Origin: Desulfobulbaceae bacterium
GTDB taxonomy: Bacteria; Desulfobacterota; Desulfobulbia; Desulfobulbales; Desulfocapsaceae
Direction: 5' to 3'
Assembly (NCBI GenBank): GCA_031256095.1
Contig: JAIRRG010000052.1
Span: forward strand, 1 to 42,662
Length of the DNA stretch: 42,662 bases
Below the pieces are notes generated by a model, which saw only the letters and a program-made list of their open reading frames with translations, was not told where the DNA came from and searched no databases. The translations under genes and the position numbers were made by a program. Shown in pieces: positions 9,224 to 41,414 of the stretch (the stretch's first letter is position 1; each line of letters begins with the position of its first letter).

Positions 9224-10584
<1,361 letters not shown>

Positions 10585-10652
10585 CAATATGCAATTCATG
10601 CGCGGTTTGTTCCCCTCTTTCCTAACCCATTGACAATCGCGGACGCAACGAC

Positions 10653-11804
10653 ATGATCTGTCAGCTTTCCTATCAAGATGGACTCGCCACCCGCCGCTTG
10701 CTCCTCGATAAAGCCAGGCGGGTGGTGGTTAAGGTCGGCAGCGCCATCCTTACCGATGAAGATGGGATGAATCTGCCGCTGGTCGAACGGCTGGTTGACA
10801 GTCTGCTGTTTCTGCGACAATCGGGGCGCGAGGTGATTCTCGTCAGTTCCGGCGCCGTGGCCGCCGGACGCCGCCGCATCCGCCTGACTCAAGAAGATGG
10901 CATCCGGGAAAAACAGGCGCTGGCAGCCATCGGCCAGTCAATCCTGATGCACACCTATGACCGTTTTTTTTCCCGCCGCGATACCACGATCGCCCAGGTG
11001 CTCTTGACCCACGACGACCTCGACCATCGCCACCGTTACCTGAACATTCGCAACACCCTGACCACACTATTGCGGTTTGGAGCCGTGCCCATTATCAACG
11101 AAAACGATACGGTCTCGGTGGAAGAGTTGCGCTTCGGCGACAACGACCGTCTAGCCGCCCTAATTACCAACCTGACCGAGGCCGACCTCTCCATCTGCCT
11201 CACCGATGTCGCCGGCCTTTATCCGGCGCCGCCCGACCAGCTGGAAAATCCCTCCCCGATTGCCAATATTGTGGAAATAAATGAAGAAATAGAAAAGATG
11301 CTGGGGGAAAGCGTAAGCGGCGTCGGCACCGGCGGCATGGCCACCAAGGTTCGCGCCGCCAAGATGGTCGCCGCCCGTGGCGGCGCCTCCTTCATCGGGC
11401 CAGGCCGGGAAGAAAGGGTGATTGAGCGGCTATTCGCCGGGGAAGATGTCGGCTCGTTCTTTTTCCCAGCCAAGCATCCGCTGCACAGTCGTAAACATTG
11501 GATCGCTTACACCCTAAAACCGAAAGGCGAGCTCATTCTCGATGACGGCGCCTGTGCCGCCCTCACCAAGAAAGGAAGAAGTCTACTGCCTTCCGGCATT
11601 ATTGAGGTGCGCGGCGACTTTGGCCCGGGCGACGCCGTCCGCTGTCTGGATAAAAACAACCGCCCGGTGGCCGTCGGTCTCATCAACTATGCCGCCGCCG
11701 ACACCAAACGCATCCAGGGCGCCCACTCCGACCAGATCGCCACCCTCCTCGGCTACAAGGACAGCGACGAGCTTATGCATCGCGATAATTTGGTGCTGTT
11801 GTAA
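10653..11804 (+). CDS. proB: Glutamate 5-kinase with C-terminal PUA domain
   Basis: It has VVKVGSAILT, VSSGAVAAG, the INENDTVS motif and a PUA-like C-terminal region. The protein is 383 aa. Confidence 0.93.
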   Translation: MICQLSYQDGLATRRLLLDKARRVVVKVGSAILTDEDGMNLPLVERLVDSLLFLRQSGREVILVSSGAVAAGRRRIRLTQEDGIREKQALAAIGQSILMHTYDRFFSRRDTTIAQVLLTHDDLDHRHRYLNIRNTLTTLLRFGAVPIINENDTVSVEELRFGDNDRLAALITNLTEADLSICLTDVAGLYPAPPDQLENPSPIANIVEINEEIEKMLGESVSGVGTGGMATKVRAAKMVAARGGASFIGPGREERVIERLFAGEDVGSFFFPAKHPLHSRKHWIAYTLKPKGELILDDGACAALTKKGRSLLPSGIIEVRGDFGPGDAVRCLDKNNRPVAVGLINYAAADTKRIQGAHSDQIATLLGYKDSDELMHRDNLVLL

Positions 11805-15929: not shown

Positions 15930-16004
<75 letters not shown>

Positions 16005-28995: not shown

Positions 28996-31683
28996 TTATC
29001 CTTTTGCCAGCGAATCGCCTTTGACGATATTGACAGTCAGCGGCACCGCCAGTGGCACCGCCTCTTCCATTACCTGTTTGAGCAGCGGTTGAGCGGCGTC
29101 GAGCCAGCGTTCTTCCAGTTCAAAAACCAGCTCGTCATGGATCTGCAAAAGCAAGCGGGCGTCGATACGCCGTGCCGCCAGATCCTGTTCGGCTTTGACC
29201 ATCGCCACCTTGATAATCTCGGCGGCGGTGCCCTGAATCGGCGTGTTGATGGCCGTGCGCTCGGCAAATTCCCTGAGCGATTTATTTTTTGAATTGATGT
29301 CAGGCAGGATACGCCTACGTCCAAACAGCGTGGTAACGAAGCCATCGCGCCGCGCCTGGGCAGCTATCTCTTTCATGAAGCGTTCAACATCAGGATAGTG
29401 CTGGAAATAACGGTCGATGAATTTCTGCGCCTCTTTGCGGCCAATATTCAATTGATTGGCCAGGCCAAAGCTGCTCATGCCGTAGACAATGCCAAAGTTG
29501 ATACTTTTTGCCACCCGTCGCATATCACCCGTGACCATCAGCGGCGCGACGCCGAAAACCTCAATCGCCGTGCGGCTGTGAATATCCTCGCCACGGACAA
29601 ACGCCTGGCATAACGCCGTGTCGCGGCTGTAGTGGGCCAGTACCCGCAAATCGATTTGTGAATAATCGGCGGAGAGAAAAACCATGCCGGGGGCTGGCAC
29701 GAAAGCGCGGCGAATGCGGTTTCCATCCTCGCCGCGAATGGGAATGTTCTGCAGATTAGGATTTGTGCTGGAAAGCCGCCCCGTGGCCGTCACCGCTTGG
29801 TTGAATGATGTATGCACGCGGCCAGTGGCCGGGTTGCGCAGTTGCGCCAGTTTTTCGACATAGGTGGCGAGCAGTTTGGCCACCGTGCGGTATTCGAGGA
29901 TTTTGCCTGGCAGCGGGTGGTAGCTGGCCAGCTTTTCCAGCACCGAAACATCGGTCGAATAGCCGGTTTTCGTCTTCTTGCCATGTGGCAGCTTCAACTC
30001 CTCAAACAGCACTTCCCCCAATTGTTTCGGCGACATGATGTTCAGTTCGCGCCCGGCCAATTGATAGATTTCCTCGCGCAAACGCCGCATCTTGTCTTGA
30101 AATTCACCGGCCAATATCCGCAAATGCGCGGCATCCACCCGAATGCCGCGCATTTCCATGGCGGCCAGGACCGGGACAAGCGGCATTTCGACCTCATCCA
30201 TCAGCCTGGCAATGCCGCGTTCGGCCAGCTTCGGCGCATAGTCCAGATACAGCCGCCAGGCCGCGAAGACATCCTCGCAAGAGTAATCACAGGCCGCGTC
30301 CAAGGCGACATGGGCGAAGGCGTCCGGGCGGGCGCCGTCTTTCGTCACTTCGGCGAAACTGGTCAGGCGAAAGCCCAATTCCTCTGCCAGATCATCGAGC
30401 TTCAGCGACCGTTCGCCGATTTCCAGCAGATGGGCGGCAATCATGGTGTCGAACAGCGGCGGGGCCAGCGGCAGTTGCCAACGGGCGGCCAAGATCGTGT
30501 AATCAAATTTCAGGTTATGGCCAATTTTAACAAGGCCGGAAGATAACAGAGGCGCCAAGGCCTGTCGTACTTTATCTTCTTTTATCTGGCCAGGGAGAAG
30601 CGCCCCATTTTCATCCTTGTGTCCGACAGGTAAATACCAGGCGCGGCCATCCTCGGTGGCAAAAGAGAGGCCAACCAGACGGGCCGACCTCGCCTCCAGC
30701 GAATCGGTTTCCGTGTCAATGGCAATGGCCTTCTCGCCGCTCAGGGCATCGACCATGGCCTGAAGCTGTGCCTCGCTTTGCACTAGGGTGAATTTGGCGG
30801 TATCAACCGGCTTGGCTGTAGACGCCGCGCCGTTCGTTGGCATCTCGGCGAGCAGGCTGTAAAATTCCAGTTTGGTGAAGAGGGCGGCCAGCCGCGCCGC
30901 GTCCTCATCGCGACGGGCATAGGCGGCAAGATCGCGCGGCGCCAAGGCGTCGGTTTTTAAGCGGATCAACTGCCGCGACAAAAACGCCTGTTCGCGGTTT
31001 TCGGCCAGGCGCTCTTTGTTCTTTGAAGCTTTCATCGTGCCAATGGCTTGGTATATACCATCCAATGACCCGTAATCACTAATTAATTTCGCGGCGGTCT
31101 TTGGGCCAATACCTGGCACGCCCGGCACATTGTCGCTGCTGTCGCCCATCAGGGCGAACAGGTCGAGGAGCTTTTCTGGCGGCGCCTGGTATTTGTCCGC
31201 CACCGCCTGGGCGTCGTAGACGGTATTTTTCATCGGCTCCCATACCGTCAGGCCGTCTCCCACCAATTGCAGCAGGTCCTTGTCGCCGGAAATGATTACC
31301 ACCTCGTGTCCGACCTGACGTAAAAAAAACGCCGCTGAAGCCAGCAGGTCGTCGGCTTCGACGCCCTCTTGGGCCAGACAGAGAATGTTTTCCGCTTCAA
31401 CGTATTCGTGGATATGAGGAATCTGACAGGCCAGGTCTTCGGGCATCGTAGGCCGGTTGGCCTTATACTGCGCATACATGTCATGGCGGAAAACCTTGCC
31501 GCGGCTGTCAAAAGCAACGGCGAGATAGCGCGGCTCTTTTTCCCGCAACAGGCGGCGGACGATACTGATGAAGCCAAACACGGCCTGGGTCGGCATCCCG
31601 GCCTTGGTGGTGAGCGGCGCCAGTGCGTAAAAGGCCCGGTAGATATAGGCGCTGCCGTCGATGAGATAGACCGTTTCCTTCAT
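28996..31683 (-). CDS. polA: DNA polymerase I
   Basis: It has a 5-prime nuclease N-terminus (LIDGSAYIYRAFYA), a 3-5 exonuclease region (AIDTETDSL) and Pol motifs DYSQIDLRVLAH, RRVAKSINFGIVYG and QIHDELVFE. I prefer the ATG at 31681..31683 (MKETVYLIDG). Confidence 0.95.
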   Translation of the reverse strand: MKETVYLIDGSAYIYRAFYALAPLTTKAGMPTQAVFGFISIVRRLLREKEPRYLAVAFDSRGKVFRHDMYAQYKANRPTMPEDLACQIPHIHEYVEAENILCLAQEGVEADDLLASAAFFLRQVGHEVVIISGDKDLLQLVGDGLTVWEPMKNTVYDAQAVADKYQAPPEKLLDLFALMGDSSDNVPGVPGIGPKTAAKLISDYGSLDGIYQAIGTMKASKNKERLAENREQAFLSRQLIRLKTDALAPRDLAAYARRDEDAARLAALFTKLEFYSLLAEMPTNGAASTAKPVDTAKFTLVQSEAQLQAMVDALSGEKAIAIDTETDSLEARSARLVGLSFATEDGRAWYLPVGHKDENGALLPGQIKEDKVRQALAPLLSSGLVKIGHNLKFDYTILAARWQLPLAPPLFDTMIAAHLLEIGERSLKLDDLAEELGFRLTSFAEVTKDGARPDAFAHVALDAACDYSCEDVFAAWRLYLDYAPKLAERGIARLMDEVEMPLVPVLAAMEMRGIRVDAAHLRILAGEFQDKMRRLREEIYQLAGRELNIMSPKQLGEVLFEELKLPHGKKTKTGYSTDVSVLEKLASYHPLPGKILEYRTVAKLLATYVEKLAQLRNPATGRVHTSFNQAVTATGRLSSTNPNLQNIPIRGEDGNRIRRAFVPAPGMVFLSADYSQIDLRVLAHYSRDTALCQAFVRGEDIHSRTAIEVFGVAPLMVTGDMRRVAKSINFGIVYGMSSFGLANQLNIGRKEAQKFIDRYFQHYPDVERFMKEIAAQARRDGFVTTLFGRRRILPDINSKNKSLREFAERTAINTPIQGTAAEIIKVAMVKAEQDLAARRIDARLLLQIHDELVFELEERWLDAAQPLLKQVMEEAVPLAVPLTVNIVKGDSLAKG

Positions 31684-32215
31684 GCTTTTGCACCTAACAA
31701 TGGAGAACTTGTTTAGCCGCGAGGCCCGAACCACTCGCCAGTTCTAGCCCCTTGCCGCCCACCGCGCTTTAAGGAAAAGAATGCGCTGCATGACACAAGC
31801 GGGAATAAAGCATCCTCCCGCCGCGCAACTGTGAGGAAATGGCTGAAAACTCTGGATGATAGGTATGGCATGGCCGTGCTGCATTGGAAATGAGGGGCGC
31901 TCATTGTAGGATGGTGAAGCTTGTAAACTCCAATTTCCCACCCCCTTTCAGATTAACAATCTGTTGAACCCTCACATCTTCGTCACAAGTATCATCAAAG
32001 CAAGCAGCCTCTATGAGAAATTCCGCCAAAGCCACCCCATAGCCTGCCCAATTCCCATGCAAACGCCTTCCAGTGACAAATCAAGCCGCTCAACCGGTAT
32101 AATTCGCGATGGTGGTTAAGAATAATTTGCAAATGGTTGCGAAATGATGAGTGACAATCTATCTTTTGGCTTGCATCGGAAATCACCAAAAACTCAAGGG
32201 GGAATGCCAAATATC

Positions 32216-32557
32216 CTACCCTAGGTGTATGCCTTTATTAAACAATCCGCAACCGCCTGTACCAACGAAAATGATGATAAACGGCGTTATGCTTCCCAGA
32301 AGTATTCCCAATGCAACAGACCTATTTTTGTTCCACATTACAAAGCCAATAACTATTCCAACTATTATAGAGGGTATACTAACCATAAACGCTGGGATAA
32401 CCCAATAACTTAAATCTGTGCCAGCAGTGAAAAGCAATGTAATAGCGGTCAGAACGACAAGCGTTATCAAATACGAGACATAAAACAGCCAATTTTTGAA
32501 TGGATTCCCTTTTTCTGGCTGGCCGCCTGATTTATTGATATTATTGTTCTCCTCCAT
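32216..32557 (-). CDS. Small membrane protein (3-4 TM), last gene of the AT-rich operon
   Basis: It is 113 aa with a polar N-terminus (MEENNNINKSGGQPEKG) followed by hydrophobic segments, and GTGGCG near the C-terminus. Its ATG overlaps the stop of the Lgt-like gene by 17 nt. Confidence 0.5.
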   Translation of the reverse strand: MEENNNINKSGGQPEKGNPFKNWLFYVSYLITLVVLTAITLLFTAGTDLSYWVIPAFMVSIPSIIVGIVIGFVMWNKNRSVALGILLGSITPFIIIFVGTGGCGLFNKGIHLG

Positions 32558-33260
32558 TTTCTCTCCTCCTCAATAAAACCGTCGTTATATATATTATCCC
32601 AAGTCCGCATATGATTTGATAAATTGTCATCCCAGCCCATATGACAGGATTTTCCCGTATGAACTCTATTAAAAATCTGAATATGAAATACGCCAAAACA
32701 TACAGCTTAAAAAGTAGCCCGGCTGTTTTAACTCTGCCTTTATAATAGAGCAAAAGAATAAAGGAGACTACATGGAAGCCGACTTCAAACAATTGTGTCG
32801 GTAATCTGGGGAATCCGTCCCCAAAATCAAAACCCCACGTTGCGATCTTGCCGTAACAGCAGCCGTTAAAAAAGCAGCCAAGCCGCCCGATAGCCATACC
32901 AAGCGCTATCGAAGGGGCAATGACATTGCCAAGTTTCAATCGGATTCTGAAGATTCGCTTAACTGCGACAACGCCGAACATACCGCCGACAAGACCACCG
33001 ACAATCGATTTGTCGTACAGTATTTCTTCCCAGCCGCGTCCTTCAAATAGCAAGGGGATTTTCGCACCGATGACGCCGAAGATGAGCGCGGAAAACACAA
33101 TTTTAATTGCGCCTTCACTGGCCTGACCTTTGCGGCTTAAATCCGTGAAATAATATATAAGCCCGGCGACTATTCCCAACACTACGAAAAATGTATACGC
33201 GGGGATCCCAAGTATAAACGGCGCCGCTTTTCCGTAGAGCCGTTCATGAACGTCCAACAT
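32541..33260 (-). CDS. Prolipoprotein diacylglyceryl transferase (Lgt, PF01790) family paralog
   Basis: It is polytopic. The motifs GGLVGGMFG, IGRLGCFFNGCCYGK and LPTQLFE match the Lgt family signature regions. It is shorter (239 aa) than typical housekeeping Lgt. Confidence 0.7.
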   Translation of the reverse strand: MLDVHERLYGKAAPFILGIPAYTFFVVLGIVAGLIYYFTDLSRKGQASEGAIKIVFSALIFGVIGAKIPLLFEGRGWEEILYDKSIVGGLVGGMFGVVAVKRIFRIRLKLGNVIAPSIALGMAIGRLGCFFNGCCYGKIATWGFDFGDGFPRLPTQLFEVGFHVVSFILLLYYKGRVKTAGLLFKLYVLAYFIFRFLIEFIRENPVIWAGMTIYQIICGLGIIYITTVLLRRRENGGEQ

Positions 33261-33723
33261 TATCCTTTACCTTTTTAGCCAATCGGCCAACTCGGCAGCA
33301 GTTACCGTCGGTCATACAGTTATATAATTTAAGGACGGAACAGAATCCGCACGCCGCGGACGTTTGGAGTATGGTGAACAAGCCTGTCATTCCCCATGCC
33401 ACAGTCGGATTCGCGAAGTATAACAGGAAAAGACAAATAACCGAGAAGATTGTCCCGGCTAAATGAGAAGCGTAAATTCCCTTTTCATCAACGATTATTT
33501 TTTCACCGGGACTAATTCGATCAACTGTGTATTTATAAAGCAGAATAAGCGGAGCCTTATCCACTTTTAATAGAGCGGAAAAAAGCATAATCAGGAAAAC
33601 CACGCCGACCAAGTATTTTATCTGGAAAATTATACTGAGCCATAAAAGCCCGGCTATCATTATCCTGCAAAACGCAAAGCTGCCCTTTGAAATCGTTTTC
33701 AGCCTAAACTGCGCCTGTGCCAT
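33244..33723 (-). CDS. Polytopic membrane protein with Cys-rich C-terminus (possibly DUF4395-like)
   Basis: It has 4 hydrophobic segments. The C-terminal AACGFCSVLKLYNCMTDGNCC gives CxxC-x7-C-x5-CC. I prefer the ATG at 33721..33723, which overlaps the upstream gene by 20 nt. The family call rests on remembered DUF4395 features only. Confidence 0.45.
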   Translation of the reverse strand: MAQAQFRLKTISKGSFAFCRIMIAGLLWLSIIFQIKYLVGVVFLIMLFSALLKVDKAPLILLYKYTVDRISPGEKIIVDEKGIYASHLAGTIFSVICLFLLYFANPTVAWGMTGLFTILQTSAACGFCSVLKLYNCMTDGNCCRVGRLAKKVKDNVGRS

Positions 33724-34300
33724 CCGCTCCACCTCTTAGTTTCGGGAAAAACATCCCCGTATTTTTTATATAGTTTTCATACTCCGCAAATTCTTCCCGC
33801 AATAACGCTTCTTCTTGTTTTGCCCGATAATACATAAACGGAATAAATATAAATGCGGTCAGCGCGGCACTTAACCAATTCCTGTAAACAAGGCTTCCTC
33901 CAAGCAACATGAGCATTATCGAAGCATACAATGGATGTCGTACAAGTTTGTAAACGCCATGGTTAATAAGGGTGTGATCTTCATATACCTTAATGTGGTT
34001 AGCCCAATTCCCCTTGAGCTGCAACCTGCCTAATATATTAGTAACCGCGCCTGTGACGACCATTGCCGTTCCCAAAAATACTATTAGGATATGCGCATTA
34101 TGATCAAAATTTCCCAAACGGAATCGCAACACAAGATAGTAAACAAAGTAGAAGCCTATCATACTTCCTGTTGCTACTATTACACGTTTACTTTTCTTAA
34201 CAGTATCCTTTTCCCCATATAATATAAAATCAATAAAAATCGCCAGAAAAACCGATACAACAGATAACGAAATCACAATGGGAATGATATTATTAATCAT
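33704..34300 (-). CDS. ICMT/PEMT-type integral-membrane methyltransferase
   Basis: It has HTLINHGVYKLVRHPLYASIMLMLLG followed by AKQEEALLREEFAEYENY. This is the signature of the isoprenylcysteine carboxyl / phospholipid methyltransferase superfamily (PF04140/PF04191). It starts 1 nt after the radical SAM gene stop. Confidence 0.7.
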   Translation of the reverse strand: MINNIIPIVISLSVVSVFLAIFIDFILYGEKDTVKKSKRVIVATGSMIGFYFVYYLVLRFRLGNFDHNAHILIVFLGTAMVVTGAVTNILGRLQLKGNWANHIKVYEDHTLINHGVYKLVRHPLYASIMLMLLGGSLVYRNWLSAALTAFIFIPFMYYRAKQEEALLREEFAEYENYIKNTGMFFPKLRGGADGTGAV

Positions 34301-34301
34301 T

Positions 34302-35663
34302 CTATGCGCTCCTGTGTATCATATTATACGCGGAAAACGGTATACGTCTTAGGTCGGTCGTAATGATATGCACACATTCTTTTTGCATTGACTTCATATC
34401 AAAATTATACTTATCGACAAAGGAGCTGACGCTTATTCTAAAAGTATTTTCATCGACAAATTTCATCTTTTCTTCCTTCGATTTTAAAATGAAATTCCCA
34501 GGCGAATACTTTTTTATATCGTTTATAAAGTCACAACAGGCGCAAACATTGAATATCTTGCTGCCATCATTAAAATTTTCTAAGGCGTCCTCAAGTGTAA
34601 ACATGAAAGTGTTTCCGATAAATCTTTTAAATTCGCTTAAATCTCTATCGCGGATAACTGGAATAAACCCGTCCTTATCTTTAAACAAATATGTAATAGC
34701 GACCCGCTCAACGTTACATGGAAGCGGTATAAAATCAGAGGTTTTTATCATTTTGTTTGTTTGTTTCTCGATCCTGTTTAAGACCCCAGAAAGGGTGACC
34801 CTGTCTGGGGGAGCGTCAATATTCCCATAATAGCTTACCGGTTGATAATTCACTCCACGCACACAGGGCTGGTTCATTCCATAAACCAAAATTTCACCGC
34901 ATAGATGATCGCTTACGCCGCCTTCTATCGTTGCCACTAATGTTGTTGGCACGTTATATTTGTTCAAATTTTTTATCGCCTTTTTTTTGATACTCACAAG
35001 GTTTTTTCCACGTAATCTTGAATAGACTTTATTCTCAAGCCCATCAAATTGTAAGTAAATTTCAAAGCCCCCACGGAATTTTGCAATTTCACGAACAAAA
35101 TTTTCATCTTCCGCAATCCTAACCCCGTTGGTATTTAACATAACATATTTGAAACCCTTGTGTTTTGCCATTCCAATTATATCTATAATATATTCATGCA
35201 GCGTCGGTTCGCCACCACTGATTTGTAAAATCTCCGCTCTATTATTTTCGGCGGACATATAAAAATCCATCATTTTTTCAACTAGATGAAGCGGCAAGTC
35301 TGCATCGTCAACCGCACGAGCATAGCATATCGGGCAAGATAAATTACACCTTCTCGTTATCTCAATAAGGCCAATACAAGTGTGTTGGTCATGATTTTCG
35401 CACAATCCGCAATCATATGGGCAGCCGCGGCTAATAATTGTCTGTGTGCCGCTTTTTGTTCCCTGTTTGTCATATTTATATTTTTGAAGATGATATTGAA
35501 AATCTTCTTCTAAAATCTCAAAATGTTCCCCGCATGTCCGACAGTTTTTTAAGATAAATACGCCTTTTTCGTTATACACGATTTTGCCGTCAATTAAACC
35601 GCCGCACTTTGAACATATTGTCCTGGTAAAGGTTTGGTAAATGTAGTCCCTGTTCATTCGCAT
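34302..35663 (-). CDS. Radical SAM enzyme with N-terminal zinc ribbon (MJ0619 / tetraether-lipid-synthase-like architecture)
   Basis: The CX3CX2C cluster is RRCNLSCPICYA and the SAM-binding motif is QISGGEPTL. The N-terminus has CSKCGG...x17...CRTCGEHF (a 4-Cys ribbon). There are extra Cys in CPYDCGLCENHDQHTC and CACCDF. The RBS GGAGG is present. Confidence 0.8.
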   Translation of the reverse strand: MRMNRDYIYQTFTRTICSKCGGLIDGKIVYNEKGVFILKNCRTCGEHFEILEEDFQYHLQKYKYDKQGTKSGTQTIISRGCPYDCGLCENHDQHTCIGLIEITRRCNLSCPICYARAVDDADLPLHLVEKMMDFYMSAENNRAEILQISGGEPTLHEYIIDIIGMAKHKGFKYVMLNTNGVRIAEDENFVREIAKFRGGFEIYLQFDGLENKVYSRLRGKNLVSIKKKAIKNLNKYNVPTTLVATIEGGVSDHLCGEILVYGMNQPCVRGVNYQPVSYYGNIDAPPDRVTLSGVLNRIEKQTNKMIKTSDFIPLPCNVERVAITYLFKDKDGFIPVIRDRDLSEFKRFIGNTFMFTLEDALENFNDGSKIFNVCACCDFINDIKKYSPGNFILKSKEEKMKFVDENTFRISVSSFVDKYNFDMKSMQKECVHIITTDLRRIPFSAYNMIHRSA

Positions 35664-35682
35664 ACCTCCGTGAACCGTCCCT

Positions 35683-35710
35683 AATTTAGCTCATTTCAAA
35701 CGACAGGCAA
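35683..35710 (-). promoter_or_regulatory. Candidate promoter of the AT-rich operon
   Basis: On the minus strand: TTGCCT (35705..35710), a 16-nt spacer, then TAAATT (35683..35688), about 20 nt upstream of the RBS. The palindrome AGGCAAATGTGCCT (35705..35718) overlaps the -35 element. Confidence 0.35.
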
Positions 35711-35788
35711 ATGTGCCTATCCTTCCAATCTAAGATTCTATAAGACCGCAAAACAGCGGCGCTGCCCAACCCGCTCCGGAATCACTGC

Positions 35789-37693
35789 CTAGACTGGCAG
35801 ATGGGTGCCGATCTCCACCACCCGTGAGCTGGGGATATTGAAAAAGGTCGAGGCGTTCCAGGCGTTGTTGCTTAAAAAAATGAACAGGGCCCGCCGCCAG
35901 GGCCGCATTACCGGCTCCTCCGCCGAGGCCAGAATGGTTTCGTGGCCCAGGTAGAAGGTGCTATCGTAGAGCGGCAGATGCATGGCCGTCTTGCGGGAGC
36001 ACTCGGAAATTTCCTCCATGTCGGGCCGCTGCATATAACCGTAGGTGACAGTCATACGGTAGAGGCCAACATCTTTATCTGACATATTGAGACGAACGCG
36101 CTCCTCCTTAGGAACGTAAGGAACCTCGACGGTGGCAATCGTCAAGATTATGATGGTCTCCGGCACCGTATGGATCAGAGCGATGGAACGGGCCAAAGGC
36201 ATTGGCGTCAGGTTCTGATTCATGGTCATGAACACGCCGATGCCGGGGCTACGATTAGTGTTCACTTGCCGCAAGCTGGTGAGAAATGCAGTCAGCGGCA
36301 TACTCATCTGAACGAAACGCTCTCGCAGATAGGCGCGGCCTTTCTTCCAGGTGGTCATGACGGTGATCAGGATTACGGCAGCCAACATCGGCAACCAGCC
36401 GCCATCGATAACTTTAATCAGATTGACGCTAAGAAAAGGCAGATCGAACAGTAGGAAAAGCGCCAGCAGCGGCGCGGCTTTCCACAGCGGCCAGTTCCAG
36501 GCGAGATAAACGACAGAAAAATAGAGTATACTGGTTATGGTCATGGCCCCGATAACCGCCAAACCATAAGCGGCGGCCAAGGAACTTGAATTCTGAAAGA
36601 TCAGGGCCAGGCCGATGCAGGCCACCATCAGCAGGGCATTGATGGTCGGCAAATAAATCTGCCCCTTGGCGGTGGGAGAGGTATGGACAAGCCGCATACG
36701 GGGGAGAAAGCCTAAGTGTACGGCTTGCTGGGTAAGGGAATAGACCCCGCTGATCACGGCCTGTGAGGCAATGACCGTGGCCATCGTGGCGAGCAGCAGC
36801 ATGGGAATAAGCAAAGGCGGCGGCAGCGCATGGTAAAAGGGATTATACGCCGCTTCCGAGTTTTTCAGGATGACCGCGCCCTGCCCCAGATAATTGAGCA
36901 GGAGCGCTGGATAAGCGACAAACAGCCAGCCCCTTTTGATGGGGACGCGGCTGAAATGGCCGAGATCGACGTACAGGGATTCGCCGCCGGTAACGCACAG
37001 CACCACGGCGCCGAGGATGATTATGCCATGCAGGTGATTGGCCTTAAAATAGGCAAGGGCGTAATACGGGTTGATGGCATAAGCCACAGCCGGGTTAGAA
37101 ATGATATTGTACAGACCGCTGGCGGCCAGGGCGGCAAACCACAGCAACATGACGGGGCCGAAAATCCCCCCAATGCGGGCGGTGCCATATTTTTGCAGTA
37201 AAAAAAGCAGGACCAGGATGCCGCAGGTAATGGGGACGACAAGCTTCGTCGCTGCTGACGAAACGATGCTTAATCCTTCGACGGCGGACAGTACCGATAT
37301 AGTTGGGGTGATGATACCGTCGCTGTATACCATCGCCGCGCTGCACAGGGCCAGATAAGGCACTATTTTGAAAAAACGGGGCGAAGACATTTTTTTCCTC
37401 ATGGCGTTGTGGATTAGCGCCAGCAGGGCAAAGGTGCCGCCCTCGCCGTGGTTGTCGGCCTTGGTGACAAATGACACGTATTTGATGGTAATGACCACCG
37501 TCAGACTCCAAAAGATCAGCGACAACACGCCCATCACATTGTCATGGCTGACAGCTATGGCATGAGGGCCGTGGAAGCATTCTTTCAGGGTGTAAAGCGG
37601 GCTGGTGCCGATGTCGCCATAGACCACGCCCAAAGCTGTTATCATCAACGCCGCCATGGACTTGCGCGGACTATTTTGGCATTCGTTTGCCAT
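35789..37693 (-). CDS. kup: KUP/HAK/KT family potassium transporter
   Basis: It has the signature LGVVYGDIGTSPLY, 12 TM-like segments and a soluble C-terminal domain. I prefer the ATG at 37691..37693 (MANECQ...) over the track start at 37759. Confidence 0.93.
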   Translation of the reverse strand: MANECQNSPRKSMAALMITALGVVYGDIGTSPLYTLKECFHGPHAIAVSHDNVMGVLSLIFWSLTVVITIKYVSFVTKADNHGEGGTFALLALIHNAMRKKMSSPRFFKIVPYLALCSAAMVYSDGIITPTISVLSAVEGLSIVSSAATKLVVPITCGILVLLFLLQKYGTARIGGIFGPVMLLWFAALAASGLYNIISNPAVAYAINPYYALAYFKANHLHGIIILGAVVLCVTGGESLYVDLGHFSRVPIKRGWLFVAYPALLLNYLGQGAVILKNSEAAYNPFYHALPPPLLIPMLLLATMATVIASQAVISGVYSLTQQAVHLGFLPRMRLVHTSPTAKGQIYLPTINALLMVACIGLALIFQNSSSLAAAYGLAVIGAMTITSILYFSVVYLAWNWPLWKAAPLLALFLLFDLPFLSVNLIKVIDGGWLPMLAAVILITVMTTWKKGRAYLRERFVQMSMPLTAFLTSLRQVNTNRSPGIGVFMTMNQNLTPMPLARSIALIHTVPETIIILTIATVEVPYVPKEERVRLNMSDKDVGLYRMTVTYGYMQRPDMEEISECSRKTAMHLPLYDSTFYLGHETILASAEEPVMRPWRRALFIFLSNNAWNASTFFNIPSSRVVEIGTHLPV

Positions 37694-38438
37694 GAACTGT
37701 CTCCGGGTTTCTTTATGTTGCTCTGCCTCCGCCTGCTGGCGGCGCCATCCTAATCGCAAACGGAAAATTCAGCGAATAATTCCTGGCCCCGCAAATAAAC
37801 GCCGCGCCCGACTCGGCTTCCCCCCGTTCCAACTGAAAAAGCCGATACGGTCATTGTCATAAACGAGGTTCAGCCACGGCAACGTGAATAAATCTTTACG
37901 AAAACGACATGGTCAATCCCGACGGCCAAAGGGTGGATTCATAGGTCTTGCACATGCAAAAAAACTGAGCGCCAAAGATTCTATGATTCCGTTTCAATGC
38001 CTTAGCTGGAAAAAACGGACTAAAAGGCATAACGGAGTTGACAAAATCGAGATTGCTGATGGTAATGGGAGGTAGGAAATTTGCGGATCGGCCCAAGCCG
38101 CGCCAACCGGCCAAGCTATCAAATTTATGTCGCGGCGGAAAATTTTGTCATTTGATTGAAAATGATGTTATGGATTCAAGACAGTGTTATAACGGAGGGA
38201 ATATGGCTCGGAACTTCCTGGTTTGTATGATCTTTTCTTAAAGTCATTATGCAGCCAGAGAGGCTCTATTTACCGCCCGGCCTGGGCGGCGTCGCGCCTC
38301 ACTAACCAAGGGGAATTGCCATGGCCTTTTACAGACTTTCAGCCAATGAAACGTGGTTTGAGTTTAGTATTCAGACTGGGGAAGCGGGCGCGTTGTCGTC
38401 CGGCGGTTCGGAGAGCGCGGAGGCGAAAGGGTGAGGTC

Positions 38439-41414
38439 ATGAGCGAGCAAGCGAAGAGTCAAACGGTGAAAAATCCTCGGGGGTATCTTAAATCTGGCGA
38501 TTGCGTCATCCTCTATCCGGCATTGACCTCTCCGGCGCTTGTGCCGGTGGGCGACAAGGGCGAACTGAACATTATTCTCGCCGGCAACGAGGATGTAAAA
38601 AGCTACTACGACAACGCGGAGAAGAAGGAGTTTTTGCGCTATTGCCATTCCCATCTGCGCCTGCCGCCCTGGCGCGATCTCTACGGCGAACCGCACCCAA
38701 AAGGGTCTGTGCCGAAAGGCCAGATTTTCAACACAGGCCAGGCCCACTACAATGACTTGTATGATCTCTCCGGTTACCAAAACATGATCTATAAGAGAGA
38801 TCAGCATGATGGCCCTATAAAGGCGTATGACGCGGGGCAATGTGACGGATGGTTTTTGAGAGAATTGAAGCCCGGCAAGGAAGAGGATGGCACGGTATCG
38901 ATTGATGACGGGAAAACGCCTTTCGGCATTCTTGGAAGCTCGGCGGTCGCTATGCTCCTTGGCGCTCCCAAGGATGAAAATAAATATAAATATCTTTTTC
39001 ATCTGCGTTTCTCCGGCATTCAAAACAGAGACGAGGGGATGTACGAGGTGATATGGTTCGCCTGTTGGCGTGATGAAAAAAACCCGGAGAAACCATGGCA
39101 TTATATTCCCAAGGAAGATATCGTGTTGCCGAAATTCACACAAGAAATTGTTCAGGGAGGCGAAAAAGCCAATAACAAACAGAAGCTGCTTCAGCCGGCC
39201 AAGCCGCCTGAGGCAAGCGATGAATCACTGCCGCCGAAGGAAAAGCCGCGTTGTGAAAATAGTTACGCCTTGTTTGACCTGGGGGTACCTTGCGTAACCC
39301 CGGAGCAAAAAAGCTTCGCCAGAAACCAAAACCAACCGCCTGAAAAACAACCTGACTCATCGGTTCCCCCGCTTTCTTGCCTATGGCAAAGCGGCCACCT
39401 GTTTACGCCCAGGCATCCCGTCTATTTTTCCGACAAGCCCTTGCTCGACATCGGCGTTATCGCCGACCCGCATATCTCGTCGAGGCAGAGCCTGTACAAA
39501 ACGGTTGGGGCGAGAGTGATACCCGGCGTCGATAGCTTTGATCAGTCGCAAATTGTTTCAGACGGCAAGGCAAAAATTGTCGCGCCGGAGGCAAGCGACT
39601 CGCCGCTGATTGGGCTGATGGCCCACGAGAATCTGCAAACGGCGCGCGAGTTGTTTGAAAAGATTGGCGCCGCAAGCGATGTCATTGTTTTTGCCGGTGA
39701 TATATACGACCATATCCGCAACCTCAATCCCAAAGCGTATAAAAATCCCGAAGGGAAAACCAGCGTTTTGTGGAACTCTCTCAGGTATCGCAAAAACTAT
39801 GAAAACGACCGGCAAACCTATCCGCGTTTCATTGACGCCATGATGGCCCTGGAGCTTATCTATCAAACCTATGCCGGCGGCAAAGCGGTTATTTACCTGG
39901 CCGGCAACCATGAAGGCTATGAGCGGCCTTACGGCATTTCGCCAAGGGTGCCAAGCGCGACGGTTGACATGGTGAAAGCCAATGAGGGCATCCCGCTTGA
40001 CCATAATTTGACCTTTTACGAGGCGGTGCTGCTCTATGGCGACGCCTATGGCGACTATTATATGGGGAACTATGCCAAAGAGAATTACGACTGGCTTCAT
40101 ACGACCCTGTCGCCATGGAAGGATATATTTATTTCCTATGGCGAAAAACAAAATATAGTCTGCCTGGATTGGGGCAGGGATGAAAAATATGTTGATAACT
40201 TTGTCAGCGGCGGCGATACCTTGCCCCGGGCCAGTCAGGCTATCGACGACAAACAACTGAAGCTGCTGCAACGCGCTCCGGCAAAAGGCGGCCAGAACGG
40301 CGTCGTCAATATTTTATGCAGCCACTTTACCTTTGCCGCTTATACTCCAGGCAAATCCCTTTTTAATGACGCCTTTGCCAGCAATGAGCCGGTTCAGGCG
40401 AAAACAACGACAACATCGGCGACCAAGGAAGGCTACAGCGTTGATGTCGGGACATTCGGCGAGCGGAAAAGCGAGGTATGGTCAATCGCCTGTGAAAAAT
40501 TCACATATATCATTTCCGGCCATACGCACCGGGCGGGCATCTATGAACTCAGCGCCGAAAAGAGCGAGGCATATACTCCCGACTACGGGACGGGACAAAC
40601 GATACAATCCAACAAGATAACGCCGATGTCCGCCATGAAGGATTTGCGCGACGCGATTTTTATCGGCGGCGGGAAAGAAACGCTGGCGCTGGTCAGCGGC
40701 TCCTGCGGCACCTACAACAAGCGCAACATGTTTGGCGAGTTTGCCGGGCACGGCTTCGATGTGCCGCAGGGCATGGTGCTGGAGCCGCGGGGAAAATGGG
40801 TGAAAATCGTTTTGAGCAAGGCGCCCAAGCCGCGCCTGGCCGTGGTTATGGATTATCTGTGGTTTGACGGCAAAGAGCTTTTTGAGCCTGTTCAAGGCAT
40901 CTGGGCTGAATTAACCGCATCCTATCAATTCAATCCCAATCAAACATTACGGAATCTATTCCGCTATCAGGCGGCCGATGGGCGATTCGCTCCCTCCATT
41001 CCTGTTGATTATATGAAGCTGCACGCGGTGACAAATGACGGGACGCATCGGGGATGTCTGCTCATGAAGGTGGAAGACGCCACTGCTAAAACCGTGCAAT
41101 TAGAGGTAACCGGCGCCGATGTTGCGAAGTTTGTTCAATTCGCTGAGTCGAAGGTACCAGATAAAAATTCTCTCTACTACTTTCTAAGCATCCATTTTGG
41201 CGGCAAGAGTTGTTCAGCAAAACACATAGCCGATTACTACGACCTCGCTTCTCCGTGGTGTATGCCGGTAACGTTGAGAAAGCTCAATCCGCGTTGGGGA
41301 AACTATGCCATCCATCGCGGCGGCGGTTTCGGCAATATCACGGGAGAATTGCCTGATTTTGAAAAACTTAAAAAGATTCCTGAATACGCACTAAAACCAA
41401 GCGCACAAAAATGA
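38439..41414 (+). CDS. Large (991 aa) multidomain calcineurin-like metallophosphoesterase of unknown function
   Basis: All five Metallophos (PF00149) motifs occur in order: GVIADPH, FAGDIYDH, LAGNHE, LCSH and SGHTH. The ATG at 38439 follows GGTGAGG. The track ORF from 38223 adds an Arg-rich extension with no RBS. The flanking N- and C-terminal regions are unassignable by eye. Confidence 0.75.
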   Translation: MSEQAKSQTVKNPRGYLKSGDCVILYPALTSPALVPVGDKGELNIILAGNEDVKSYYDNAEKKEFLRYCHSHLRLPPWRDLYGEPHPKGSVPKGQIFNTGQAHYNDLYDLSGYQNMIYKRDQHDGPIKAYDAGQCDGWFLRELKPGKEEDGTVSIDDGKTPFGILGSSAVAMLLGAPKDENKYKYLFHLRFSGIQNRDEGMYEVIWFACWRDEKNPEKPWHYIPKEDIVLPKFTQEIVQGGEKANNKQKLLQPAKPPEASDESLPPKEKPRCENSYALFDLGVPCVTPEQKSFARNQNQPPEKQPDSSVPPLSCLWQSGHLFTPRHPVYFSDKPLLDIGVIADPHISSRQSLYKTVGARVIPGVDSFDQSQIVSDGKAKIVAPEASDSPLIGLMAHENLQTARELFEKIGAASDVIVFAGDIYDHIRNLNPKAYKNPEGKTSVLWNSLRYRKNYENDRQTYPRFIDAMMALELIYQTYAGGKAVIYLAGNHEGYERPYGISPRVPSATVDMVKANEGIPLDHNLTFYEAVLLYGDAYGDYYMGNYAKENYDWLHTTLSPWKDIFISYGEKQNIVCLDWGRDEKYVDNFVSGGDTLPRASQAIDDKQLKLLQRAPAKGGQNGVVNILCSHFTFAAYTPGKSLFNDAFASNEPVQAKTTTTSATKEGYSVDVGTFGERKSEVWSIACEKFTYIISGHTHRAGIYELSAEKSEAYTPDYGTGQTIQSNKITPMSAMKDLRDAIFIGGGKETLALVSGSCGTYNKRNMFGEFAGHGFDVPQGMVLEPRGKWVKIVLSKAPKPRLAVVMDYLWFDGKELFEPVQGIWAELTASYQFNPNQTLRNLFRYQAADGRFAPSIPVDYMKLHAVTNDGTHRGCLLMKVEDATAKTVQLEVTGADVAKFVQFAESKVPDKNSLYYFLSIHFGGKSCSAKHIADYYDLASPWCMPVTLRKLNPRWGNYAIHRGGGFGNITGELPDFEKLKKIPEYALKPSAQK

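Follow-up and report, generated by a model that had tools for sequence, protein, structure and literature searches.

Genomic context of the cassette

The DNA analysed here is a window of 42,662 nucleotides (nt) from a Desulfobulbaceae bacterium (assembly GCA_031256095.1, contig JAIRRG010000052.1, positions 1 to 42,662), and all positions below are coordinates of this window. Between polA and kup, at 32216-35663 on the minus strand, lies a cassette of five genes encoding an enzyme of the radical S-adenosylmethionine (SAM) type (rSAM), a membrane methyltransferase, a DUF4395 protein, a paralog of the diacylglyceryl transferase Lgt and a small membrane protein. The same arrangement is found in genomes of both bacteria and archaea, and we suggest that it may constitute a mobile lipidation module. 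The cassette and its flanks are organized as follows.

34302-35663, minus strand: Tes/GDGT-MAS-like rSAM, 453 amino acids (aa) from the first ATG, 451 aa from the ATG at 35657
33704-34300, minus strand: integral-membrane SAM methyltransferase of the ICMT/PEMT superfamily, 198 aa
33244-33723, minus strand: DUF4395 protein with four transmembrane segments, 159 aa from the ATG at 33723 (open reading frame, ORF, 33244-33732)
32541-33260, minus strand: Lgt-fold paralog, 239 aa
32216-32557, minus strand: small protein with three transmembrane segments (gene 5), 113 aa
35664-35788, minus strand: kup-rSAM intergenic region of 125 nt, the likely (putative) place of the cassette promoter, with the ribosome-binding site (RBS) GGAGG before the ATG at 35657
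31735-32215, minus strand: spacer of 481 nt from the last stop codon of the cassette to the polA start, 48% G+C, downstream edge of the low-G+C island
28996-31734: polA, DNA polymerase I (flank)
35789-37759: kup, Kup potassium transporter (flank)

A first-pass annotation of this DNA had described five packed minus-strand frames separated by a 1-nt gap and overlaps of 17-20 nt, and the ORF listing reproduces these coordinates exactly. The rSAM stop at 34302 and the methyltransferase start at 34300 read TAG-A-ATG, and the three downstream junctions overlap by 20, 17 and 17 nt, with a Shine-Dalgarno-like GGAG before each start. For rSAM, the ATG at 35657 is favoured by the gene caller and by RBS spacing. 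No consensus sigma-70 site was scored in the kup-rSAM intergenic region, promoter and terminator scans gave no signal above shuffled background, and the 31735-32215 spacer contains neither a clear terminator nor a repeat. The motifs quoted in that annotation are also present, namely C106x3C110x2C113 in rSAM, RHPLY...EE in the methyltransferase and GRLGCFFNGCCYG...PTQL in the Lgt-like protein. Its three family calls were borne out by Pfam scores above the cut-offs (Radical_SAM, 59 bits; ICMT PF04140, 49 bits; LGT PF01790, 113.6 bits), the first of them now being sharpened to a Tes/GDGT-MAS-like enzyme.

Recurrence across bacteria and archaea

A pattern scan for relatives of rSAM covered 185,579 species, each represented by a single genome, and yielded 268 loci, of which the best 80 were retrieved and searched by tblastn with the four partner proteins. 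Among these best 80 of 268 loci, the order rSAM, ICMT-like, DUF4395, Lgt-like on a single strand holds in 71 of the 72 with a contig long enough to include the Lgt position (70 complete copies and one cut by a contig end), and the other eight seemingly missing cases are contig ends. Such an arrangement is far beyond chance. The sole exception, locus L030 in a Clostridium metagenome-assembled genome (MAG), keeps rSAM, the methyltransferase, DUF4395 and gene 5, with the Lgt-like gene reduced to a 46-aa remnant (L030:2777-2914) that may reflect either misassembly or a natural knockout. Apparent ICMT-DUF4395 and DUF4395-Lgt fusions in L013-15, L045 and L039 were dismissed, each having an ordinary in-frame stop and RBS. 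Clustering of 1,127 neighbouring ORFs gave no sixth recurrent gene, whether Lsp, a CaaX protease, a transporter or a regulator.

The bacterial hosts include many Bacillota, Coriobacteriia and other Actinobacteria, Bacteroidota (Mangrovibacterium marinum), numerous Patescibacteria, Cloacimonadota, Elusimicrobia, Acidobacteria, Omnitrophota, Ignavibacteriales and Desulfobacterota. Archaeal MAGs, DPANN among them, are represented by Woesearchaeota, Nanoarchaeota and Methanosarcinales, with Lgt-fold genes on the contigs of L080 (9637-10386 of 89.7 kb), L042, L046, L049, L058, L065, L076 and L078. The L080 contig (Methanosarcinales) appears to be archaeal because a pelota gene (TIGR00111, above cut-off) lies 1.3 kb from the cassette. 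A search for the genes in unrelated genomes had been proposed in the first-pass annotation, and its outcome is strongly positive, with the same order and strand retained in unrelated phyla of two domains.

The radical SAM enzyme

Besides its Radical_SAM domain, rSAM has an N-terminal Zn_ribbon_HMPTM domain. Its best curated matches, both sub-threshold, are to TrsS (NF045646, 322.9 bits against a cut-off of 490), covering rSAM residues 13-450 and positions 3-433 of the 441 in the profile, and to Tes (NF045702, 273.8 bits against a cut-off of 450), for which the best stretch is residues 13-318 only. With phmmer, residues 13-452 align to the GDGT-MAS of M. jannaschii (PDB 7TOL) at an E-value of 7e-64 and about 30% identity. 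The moderately confident AlphaFold2 (AF2) model (predicted local distance difference test score, pLDDT, 71.4; predicted template modelling score, pTM, 0.80) matches 7TOM and 7TOL with a template modelling (TM) score of 0.77-0.78 and an E-value of 1e-32, whereas other radical SAM structures match the core barrel only (TM score at most 0.40).

The metal sites point in the same direction. In the rubredoxin-like site C17x2C20x20C41x2C44, the first three cysteines are invariant in 80/80 homologs, and the fourth ligand is His in 72 and Cys in eight, these being the window protein and the seven relatives closest to it. The window codon for C44 is 35532-35534; GDGT-MAS has His at this site. Both the N-terminal cluster motif C81x3C85x2C88 with H91/H94 and the radical SAM (RS) cluster motif C106x3C110x2C113 are invariant in all 80. 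The cysteine spacings are identical to those that the GDGT-MAS report gives for its rubredoxin-like site (C9X2C12X20C33X2H36), its [4Fe-4S]N cluster (C73/C77/C80 plus His) and its RS cluster (CX3CX2C) (PMC9433317). In Tes a further cluster, [4Fe-4S]C, is bound by three Cys and a labile Met439 and captures the substrate radical; candidate ligands here for such a cluster would be the invariant C316 and C430 together with C374/C376 (65/80), in a region that aligns poorly to the M. jannaschii enzyme (MjTes).

No hydrophobic segment is found in rSAM (maximum hydropathy over 19 residues, 1.1), and the protein is by this prediction soluble or peripheral, contrary to the earlier statement that all partners are membrane proteins. 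The ORF at 34302-35663 contains no in-frame TGA and hence no selenocysteine. By the curated cut-offs rSAM is neither Tes nor TrsS, and it seems to form a third clade within the Tes-like group.

The methyltransferase and the DUF4395 protein

The second gene product matches PEMT (PF04191, 37.8 bits) in addition to ICMT, and reaches 83.4 bits against the protein-S-isoprenylcysteine O-methyltransferase family NF040696, below its cut-off of 160. Residues 47-188 are colinear with the crystallised archaeal Ma-ICMT (4A2N; E 9e-15). Across 76 homologs, conservation is 90% or more at R121, H122, P123, L124, Y125, E163, E164 and further positions. Matches to PEMT and LmtA proteins were also obtained, together with a weak one to MddA (E 1e-4). 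Ma-ICMT itself was considered as a cassette member and rejected, as it is 31-40% identical to all cassette methyltransferases and not specially close to the Methanosarcinales copy.

The protein first described simply as a Cys-rich transmembrane protein belongs to DUF4395 (PF14340, 34.7 bits against a gathering threshold of 24.5), a family whose function was nowhere described in our literature search. All 52 subfamily members examined match PF14340, and they carry a C-terminal C-x7-C-x5-CC outside the Pfam domain. C22, C131, C139, C145 and C146 (162-aa numbering) are kept in 71-74 of 74 homologs, and counts of Lys and Arg under the positive-inside rule place all five at the cytoplasmic face. 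Weak matches to YgaP-like_TM, the transmembrane domain of a membrane rhodanese, occur in 21 of the 52 members (best E 0.005); they are too weak to build on and at best point faintly towards sulfur or thiol trafficking.

The Lgt-like enzyme

The Lgt-like protein scores 67 bits against TIGR00544, below the equivalog cut-off of 118.9, and stays far below the thresholds of all PRK00052 sub-models. Its AF2 model (pLDDT 86.6) adopts the seven-transmembrane Lgt fold, and its sole significant PDB match is Escherichia coli Lgt (EcLgt, 5AZB; TM score 0.75). In EcLgt, R143, E202, Y235 and R239 form site 2 for diacylglyceryl or phosphatidylglycerol (PG), E151 binds the PG head group in a "selection" site (Mao et al., 2016; PMC4728403), and the variants H103A/N/Q/R/Y and E151A/Q are inactive (PMC4728403).

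The diacylglyceryl pocket is retained, with R126, E159, Y191, R195, E199 and G137 present in 71/71 Lgt-like sequences and R202 as 67 Arg and four Lys; the EcLgt equivalents kept are G142, R143, G145, G154, E202, Y235, R239, E243, R246 and Y26. The entry side is altered. A Cys triad, C129/C134/C135, replaces N146/E151/L152 of the EcLgt signature G-R-L-G-N146-F-I-N-G-E151-L-W-G in all 71, the position of H103, the His of the EcLgt motif HGGL, is occupied by Val (52), Thr (9), Ile (7) or Leu (3) and never by His, and the periplasmic head has 18-22 residues instead of about 46. The string GR.GCF.NGCCYG, which had been taken as a mark of the Lgt family, is rather a diagnostic deviation of this subfamily, with Cys in place of E151 throughout. 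As in E. coli Lgt, the positive-inside rule places the signature at the outer leaflet. From sequence and model, we regard this protein as a distinct Lgt-fold enzyme predicted to combine a conserved diacylglyceryl pocket with a remodelled, thiol-rich entry site. NCBI and JGI label the Cys-triad paralogs 'prolipoprotein diacylglyceryl transferase' (P0256, P0257, P0259, P0271, P0277 and others), which is likely a systematic over-annotation because H103 and E151 are lost and the score is under the lgt equivalog cut-off.

The fifth gene

The gene 5 product, which has no family match in Pfam or NCBIfam, ends in a basic loop and a last helix (...FVGTGGC103GLFNKGIHLG). BLAST finds it only in the four closest loci; nearly every locus, however, has a three-helix ORF of 90-130 aa immediately 3' of the Lgt-like gene, often overlapping it. 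Starting from five alignable sequences, an iterated hidden Markov model (HMM) converged on 80 homologs in 58 loci. Each of them directly follows the Lgt-like gene on its strand, and the model matched nothing else in the 1127 ORFs. Profile drift is unlikely, since the hits are confined to that position. Four further loci were recognised by eye, giving about 62, and gene 5 is a conserved member of the cassette. The small transmembrane protein of the first-pass annotation was thus rightly counted to the block; it is no bystander, and we see in it a candidate substrate.

These proteins have little in common beyond an N-terminal tail of polar character, a pair of helices, a basic loop whose net charge is +2 to +5, and a last helix ending in L-L-[LVI]-[FVTL]-G-[AGST]-C (in its shorter form, [FVLIT]-G-[AGST]-C). 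The cysteine stands 4-15 residues from the C-terminus (median 7-8) and is the sole one of the protein in 44/80 homologs. Position -2 is Gly in 57/69 and position -1 is Ala, Gly or Ser in 49/69 and Thr in 15. Searched by phmmer against 1.84 billion representatives, the window protein retrieved 38 relatives, 33 of them with the Cys motif. Loop charges predict an N-in/C-out topology, which puts the cysteine at the outer leaflet, where the Lgt-like signature is also predicted. A lipoprotein precursor has an N-terminal signal peptide with [LVI][ASTVI][GAS]C; here the motif instead ends the third transmembrane helix near the stop codon, and the resemblance of the whole to the n-region, h-region and Cys of a lipoprotein signal peptide is one of analogous geometry only.

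Twelve loci carry two to five tandem copies, some of the extra ones without the C-terminal Cys. Examples are:

L037:10185-11975, tandem gene 5 copies
L036:5431-7357, tandem gene 5 copies
L043:10352-11970, tandem gene 5 copies
L069/L070, approximately 10370-11655, tandem gene 5 copies

In two rumen Bacilli MAGs (L050:7363-7803 and L051), the gene 5 homolog is fused to an N-terminal zinc-ribbon-like CxxC...CxxC segment.

Composition and origin in this genome

The G+C content of the cassette is 40.2% versus 55.4% in the remaining window. It amounts to 33-39% in the rSAM/ICMT half and 43-49% in the DUF4395/Lgt half, and G+C at third codon positions (GC3) is 39-48% versus 68-70% in polA, kup and the gene of serine hydroxymethyltransferase (SHMT). 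The AT-richness noted by eye is therefore real, and the contrast is large and sharp, but the estimate of one third G+C against 60% was overstated; windowed G+C, proposed as a check, likewise gives a sharp step at the island edges (the upstream one at 35664-35788) with a level of 40% rather than about 33%. In 12 other genomes the cassette differs from its own flanks by 0-4.5 points, against a deficit of 15 points in this genome.

At 57-79% identity, the nearest relatives of the cassette proteins come from Clostridia (Filifactoraceae, Eubacteriales, Defluviitaleaceae, Anaerovorax, Oscillospiraceae), and copies in other Desulfobacterota reach just 51-54%. The host PolA, for comparison, shares 84% and 79% identity with its counterparts in Desulfobulbaceae MAGs, and polA has no cassette and no kup beside it in the three closest loci from Desulfobulbaceae. 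Given the 15-point deficit, the contrast between Clostridia-related cassette proteins and a Desulfobulbaceae PolA, and the absence of the cassette beside polA of the relatives, sequence comparison supports a transfer of fairly recent date, the donor being low in G+C, Clostridia-like and of Bacillota type, in agreement with the horizontal acquisition proposed from the first reading. The kup-cassette junction is not chimeric, because the same junction is present in an independent assembly (Logan SRR14710885). At the genome level, this is a clean case of recent cross-phylum transfer of a cell-envelope function without mobility genes.

The scans also agree with the initial impression that integrases, tRNAs and clear edge repeats are missing. 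No integrase or mobility genes were found around the cassette in the window, and the nearest tRNA in the window is at 15930, so that none lies within 16 kb. The sole repeat candidate, 31868-31882 and 35980-35994 (GCATGGCCGTGCTGC and GCATGGCCGTCTTGC, 13/15 matching), is probably due to chance, its second copy being inside kup. An empty-site comparison was abandoned since the three closest polA loci are non-syntenic upstream of polA, and the insertion ends are not exactly definable by this route.

Proposed function and alternative explanations

Enzymes of the ICMT/PEMT type use SAM to methylate polar groups of membrane-embedded substrates at the cytoplasmic interface. Lgt moves the diacylglyceryl group of PG onto a Cys thiol at the outer leaflet (PMC4728403). 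Tes removes a hydrogen from the carbon at the end of a lipid tail and makes C-C bonds via a carbon-sulfur(cluster) intermediate (PMC9433317). By extension, the Lgt-like enzyme would transfer a diacylglyceryl-type glycerolipid to a thiol at the outer leaflet, and the acceptor would most likely be the lipobox-like Cys of the gene 5 protein, following a substrate-encoded logic as in clusters for peptides that are ribosomally synthesised and post-translationally modified (RiPPs). The Tes-like rSAM may perform radical C-H chemistry at the lipid-tail terminus, for example tail-to-tail coupling or another cluster-mediated functionalisation, while the ICMT-like enzyme would act at the inner interface and methylate the lipid or lipid-Cys on a polar group. 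The DUF4395 protein could serve as a Cys-rich membrane partner (metal, Fe-S or sulfur relay) or as a dock for the cytoplasmic enzymes. The presumed product is a tailored lipid or a lipid-anchored small protein in the cell envelope of anaerobes.

We thus read the cassette as a self-contained, laterally mobile module in which the encoded small protein is S-lipidated and the lipid tailored, with a probability of roughly 0.45. That the gene 5 Cys is the acceptor of the Lgt-like enzyme is a tentative assignment, made because the basic loop and helix before the Cys mimic the n- and h-regions of a lipoprotein and because prediction puts this Cys at the outer leaflet together with the Lgt-like signature. 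Gene 5 also looks substrate-like because it evolves fast and is sometimes multiplied, as substrate genes of RiPP type are.

Several observations weigh against this interpretation. The chief problem is one of membrane sides: the predicted methyltransferase SAM site, rSAM and the DUF4395 cysteines are on the cytoplasmic side, and the predicted Lgt-like site and gene 5 Cys are on the outer side. The gene 5 motif is no canonical lipobox, with Gly dominant at -2, Thr, Val, Leu or Met also at -1, and a location at the end of an internal helix; the Cys is missing in 5/38 relatives and in some tandem copies, and about 8/66 loci show no gene 5. With H103 and E151 lost, even diacylglyceryl transfer by the Lgt-like enzyme is an extrapolation, and a metal or disulfide centre made up of the Cys triad and the gene 5 Cys is an alternative possibility. 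For rSAM, the ligands of the Tes [4Fe-4S]C cluster do not map confidently, and residues 340-378 in the C-terminal part of the AF2 model have a pLDDT below 50.

In its most far-reaching form the S-lipidation reading would describe a lipidation system shared by bacteria and archaea, in which the Lgt-like enzyme links a glycerolipid to the gene 5 Cys by a thioether, the Tes-like enzyme couples or functionalises its tail and the ICMT-type enzyme caps the product by methylation; the tail may, for example, be joined to a lipid from the other leaflet, which would yield a membrane-spanning lipid anchored on the protein. We consider this version rather unlikely. If it were true, archaea and the candidate phyla radiation (CPR)/DPANN would have their first case of Lgt-type lipidation, the Tes family would have a new task, and many 'Tes homologs' of metagenomes would not be tetraether synthases.

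An operon for membrane-spanning lipids, where the Tes homolog couples the tails of bulk lipids (of branched glycerol dialkyl glycerol tetraether, brGDGT, or diabolic-acid type), the remaining four serve as accessory factors in lipid handling or remodelling and protein lipidation plays no part, would account for the full-length Tes homology and fold of rSAM. Bacterial Tes homologs have been proposed as brGDGT synthases (PMC8941075), GDGT-MAS binds bacterial phospholipids (PMC9433317), and the ICMT/PEMT superfamily, given the PEMT and LmtA matches, includes methyltransferases of lipid head groups. Archaeal Tes and bacterial Mss, however, each work alone in heterologous hosts, so that the strict linkage to an Lgt fold, DUF4395 and a small Cys protein is left unexplained, as are the invariant cysteines; moreover, rSAM falls under the Tes equivalog cut-off (274 vs 450 bits). 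The cassette is also common in Patescibacteria and DPANN, which are generally considered to be without lipid synthesis of their own. On balance, we judge this explanation unlikely.

Somewhat more doubtful is a thiol, metal or sulfur-relay membrane complex that serves a sulfur-inserting or otherwise tail-functionalising Tes-derived rSAM, the new group (e.g., in a methylthio-lipid) being methylated by the ICMT/MddA-like enzyme. Here nine invariant cysteines (three in the Lgt-like protein, one in gene 5 and five in DUF4395) would bind a metal or Fe-S centre or shuttle sulfur or electrons from one side of the membrane to the other, and their placement, 3+1 on one membrane face and five on the other, fits such a role. 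So does the C-S(cluster) intermediate through which the substrate passes on the Tes route (PMC9433317). The similarities that support it, those of the methyltransferase to the methanethiol S-methyltransferase MddA (E 1e-4) and of DUF4395 to YgaP-like domains (21/52; E 0.005 or worse), are all weak, extracytoplasmic Fe-S centres are unusual, and there would be no reason to keep an Lgt fold with an intact diacylglyceryl pocket. Lastly, the Lgt-like gene might be the organism's own lgt with neighbours adjacent by chance, as its naming at NCBI and JGI and its Pfam LGT domain would imply. This explanation is effectively refuted by the sub-equivalog score (67 vs 118.9) and the absent H103 and E151, by a five-gene order conserved across two domains in a block that is compositionally foreign here, and by archaea, which have no known Lgt and carry the cassette.

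Comparison with known systems

The rSAM enzyme resembles Tes/GDGT-MAS (MJ0619; 7TOL/7TOM) in full-length alignment, four-domain architecture, fold and the rubredoxin, N-cluster and RS motifs, and the two have a C-terminal motif block in common (F-R-I-S...F-x-D-x-Y-N-F-D...C-x-H...IPF). It is, however, shorter around residues 316-380, the region of the lipid pocket and C-terminal cluster, and has its cysteines at C316, C374/C376 and C430, where MjTes uses other positions plus Met439. Tes acts alone, whereas the cassette enzyme is always inside the five-gene unit and mostly bacterial. TrsS, reportedly the work of Haft and Tolstoy in 2025, is the best-scoring curated family and matches over the whole length, evidently as a sister clade within the Tes-like group. 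Most TrsS members contain selenocysteine, encoded by an in-frame UGA; the cassette enzyme has none and remains below the 490-bit cut-off.

Mss is also a radical SAM enzyme of anaerobes that couples lipid tails, with a Tes-like predicted architecture and a broad distribution shaped by horizontal transfer that includes Clostridia, candidate phyla and some archaea. It is the validated tail-coupling enzyme of bacteria, and Mss-bearing model organisms have no Tes homolog by BLAST (Sahonero-Canavesi et al., 2022). This makes it unlikely that the cassette rSAM, a clear Tes homolog, is an ortholog of Mss (T. maritima Tmari_0825, T. ethanolicus WP_129545148.1), and a linkage to Lgt, ICMT and DUF4395 has not been reported for mss.

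The Lgt-like enzyme has the seven-transmembrane fold, pocket residues and outer-leaflet signature of E. coli Lgt (5AZB), and differs in its Cys triad, the lack of H103, the shortened head, the sub-cut-off score and its occurrence in archaea. Lgt serves a whole lipoproteome, whereas the paralog is linked to a dedicated small protein. The methyltransferase is close to Ma-ICMT (4A2N) in length (198 vs 194 aa) and in its RHPxY and EE...F..Y SAM-site motifs, as well as in the alignment given above. Conceptually, a near-C-terminal Cys on a small protein, a lipid transferase and an ICMT-type enzyme recall the eukaryotic CaaX pathway; the cassette, however, has no prenyltransferase or CaaX protease, and its gene 5 Cys lies 4-15 rather than four residues from the end and is predicted on the face opposite to the SAM site.

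The folds of the enzymes are known, and the system as a whole is undescribed. As already suspected from the first reading, the search turned up no characterised pathway that uses this gene set: the literature searched holds no account of a combination of Lgt, rSAM and ICMT, nor of Tes homologs tied to diacylglyceryl transferases, and NCBIfam has no curated entry describing the cassette. It brings together three membrane enzyme families not previously reported together, apparently with their own encoded substrate, and it is widespread, strictly syntenic and present in cultured strains (Youngiibacter fragilis 232.1, Alkalibaculum sporogenes M08, Clostridium bowmanii DSM 14206 and Mangrovibacterium marinum DSM 28823), crossing the lipid divide between bacteria and archaea. 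The enzyme that lipidates archaeal lipoproteins is still debated. No archaeal Lgt homolog was known to a 2025 paper (PMC12462473).

The "Tes homologs" of bacteria, CPR and DPANN appear in the literature as BLAST matches only, and have been proposed to make brGDGTs or have been attributed to hosts (PMC8941075). In palaeoclimate-proxy work such homologs are read as markers of (br)GDGT producers. Because the cassette-linked clade always travels with the Lgt-like, ICMT-like, DUF4395 and small Cys proteins, it probably does something other than tetraether synthesis, and gene-based assignments of (br)GDGT sources would then need revising.

Neighbouring gene

Next to kup, an ORF of 1063 aa on the plus strand (38223-41414) has a weak, split match to calcineurin-like phosphoesterases over residues 410-655 and is otherwise unannotated. 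Its G+C content of 51.6% and GC3 of 59% are also below those of the housekeeping neighbours.

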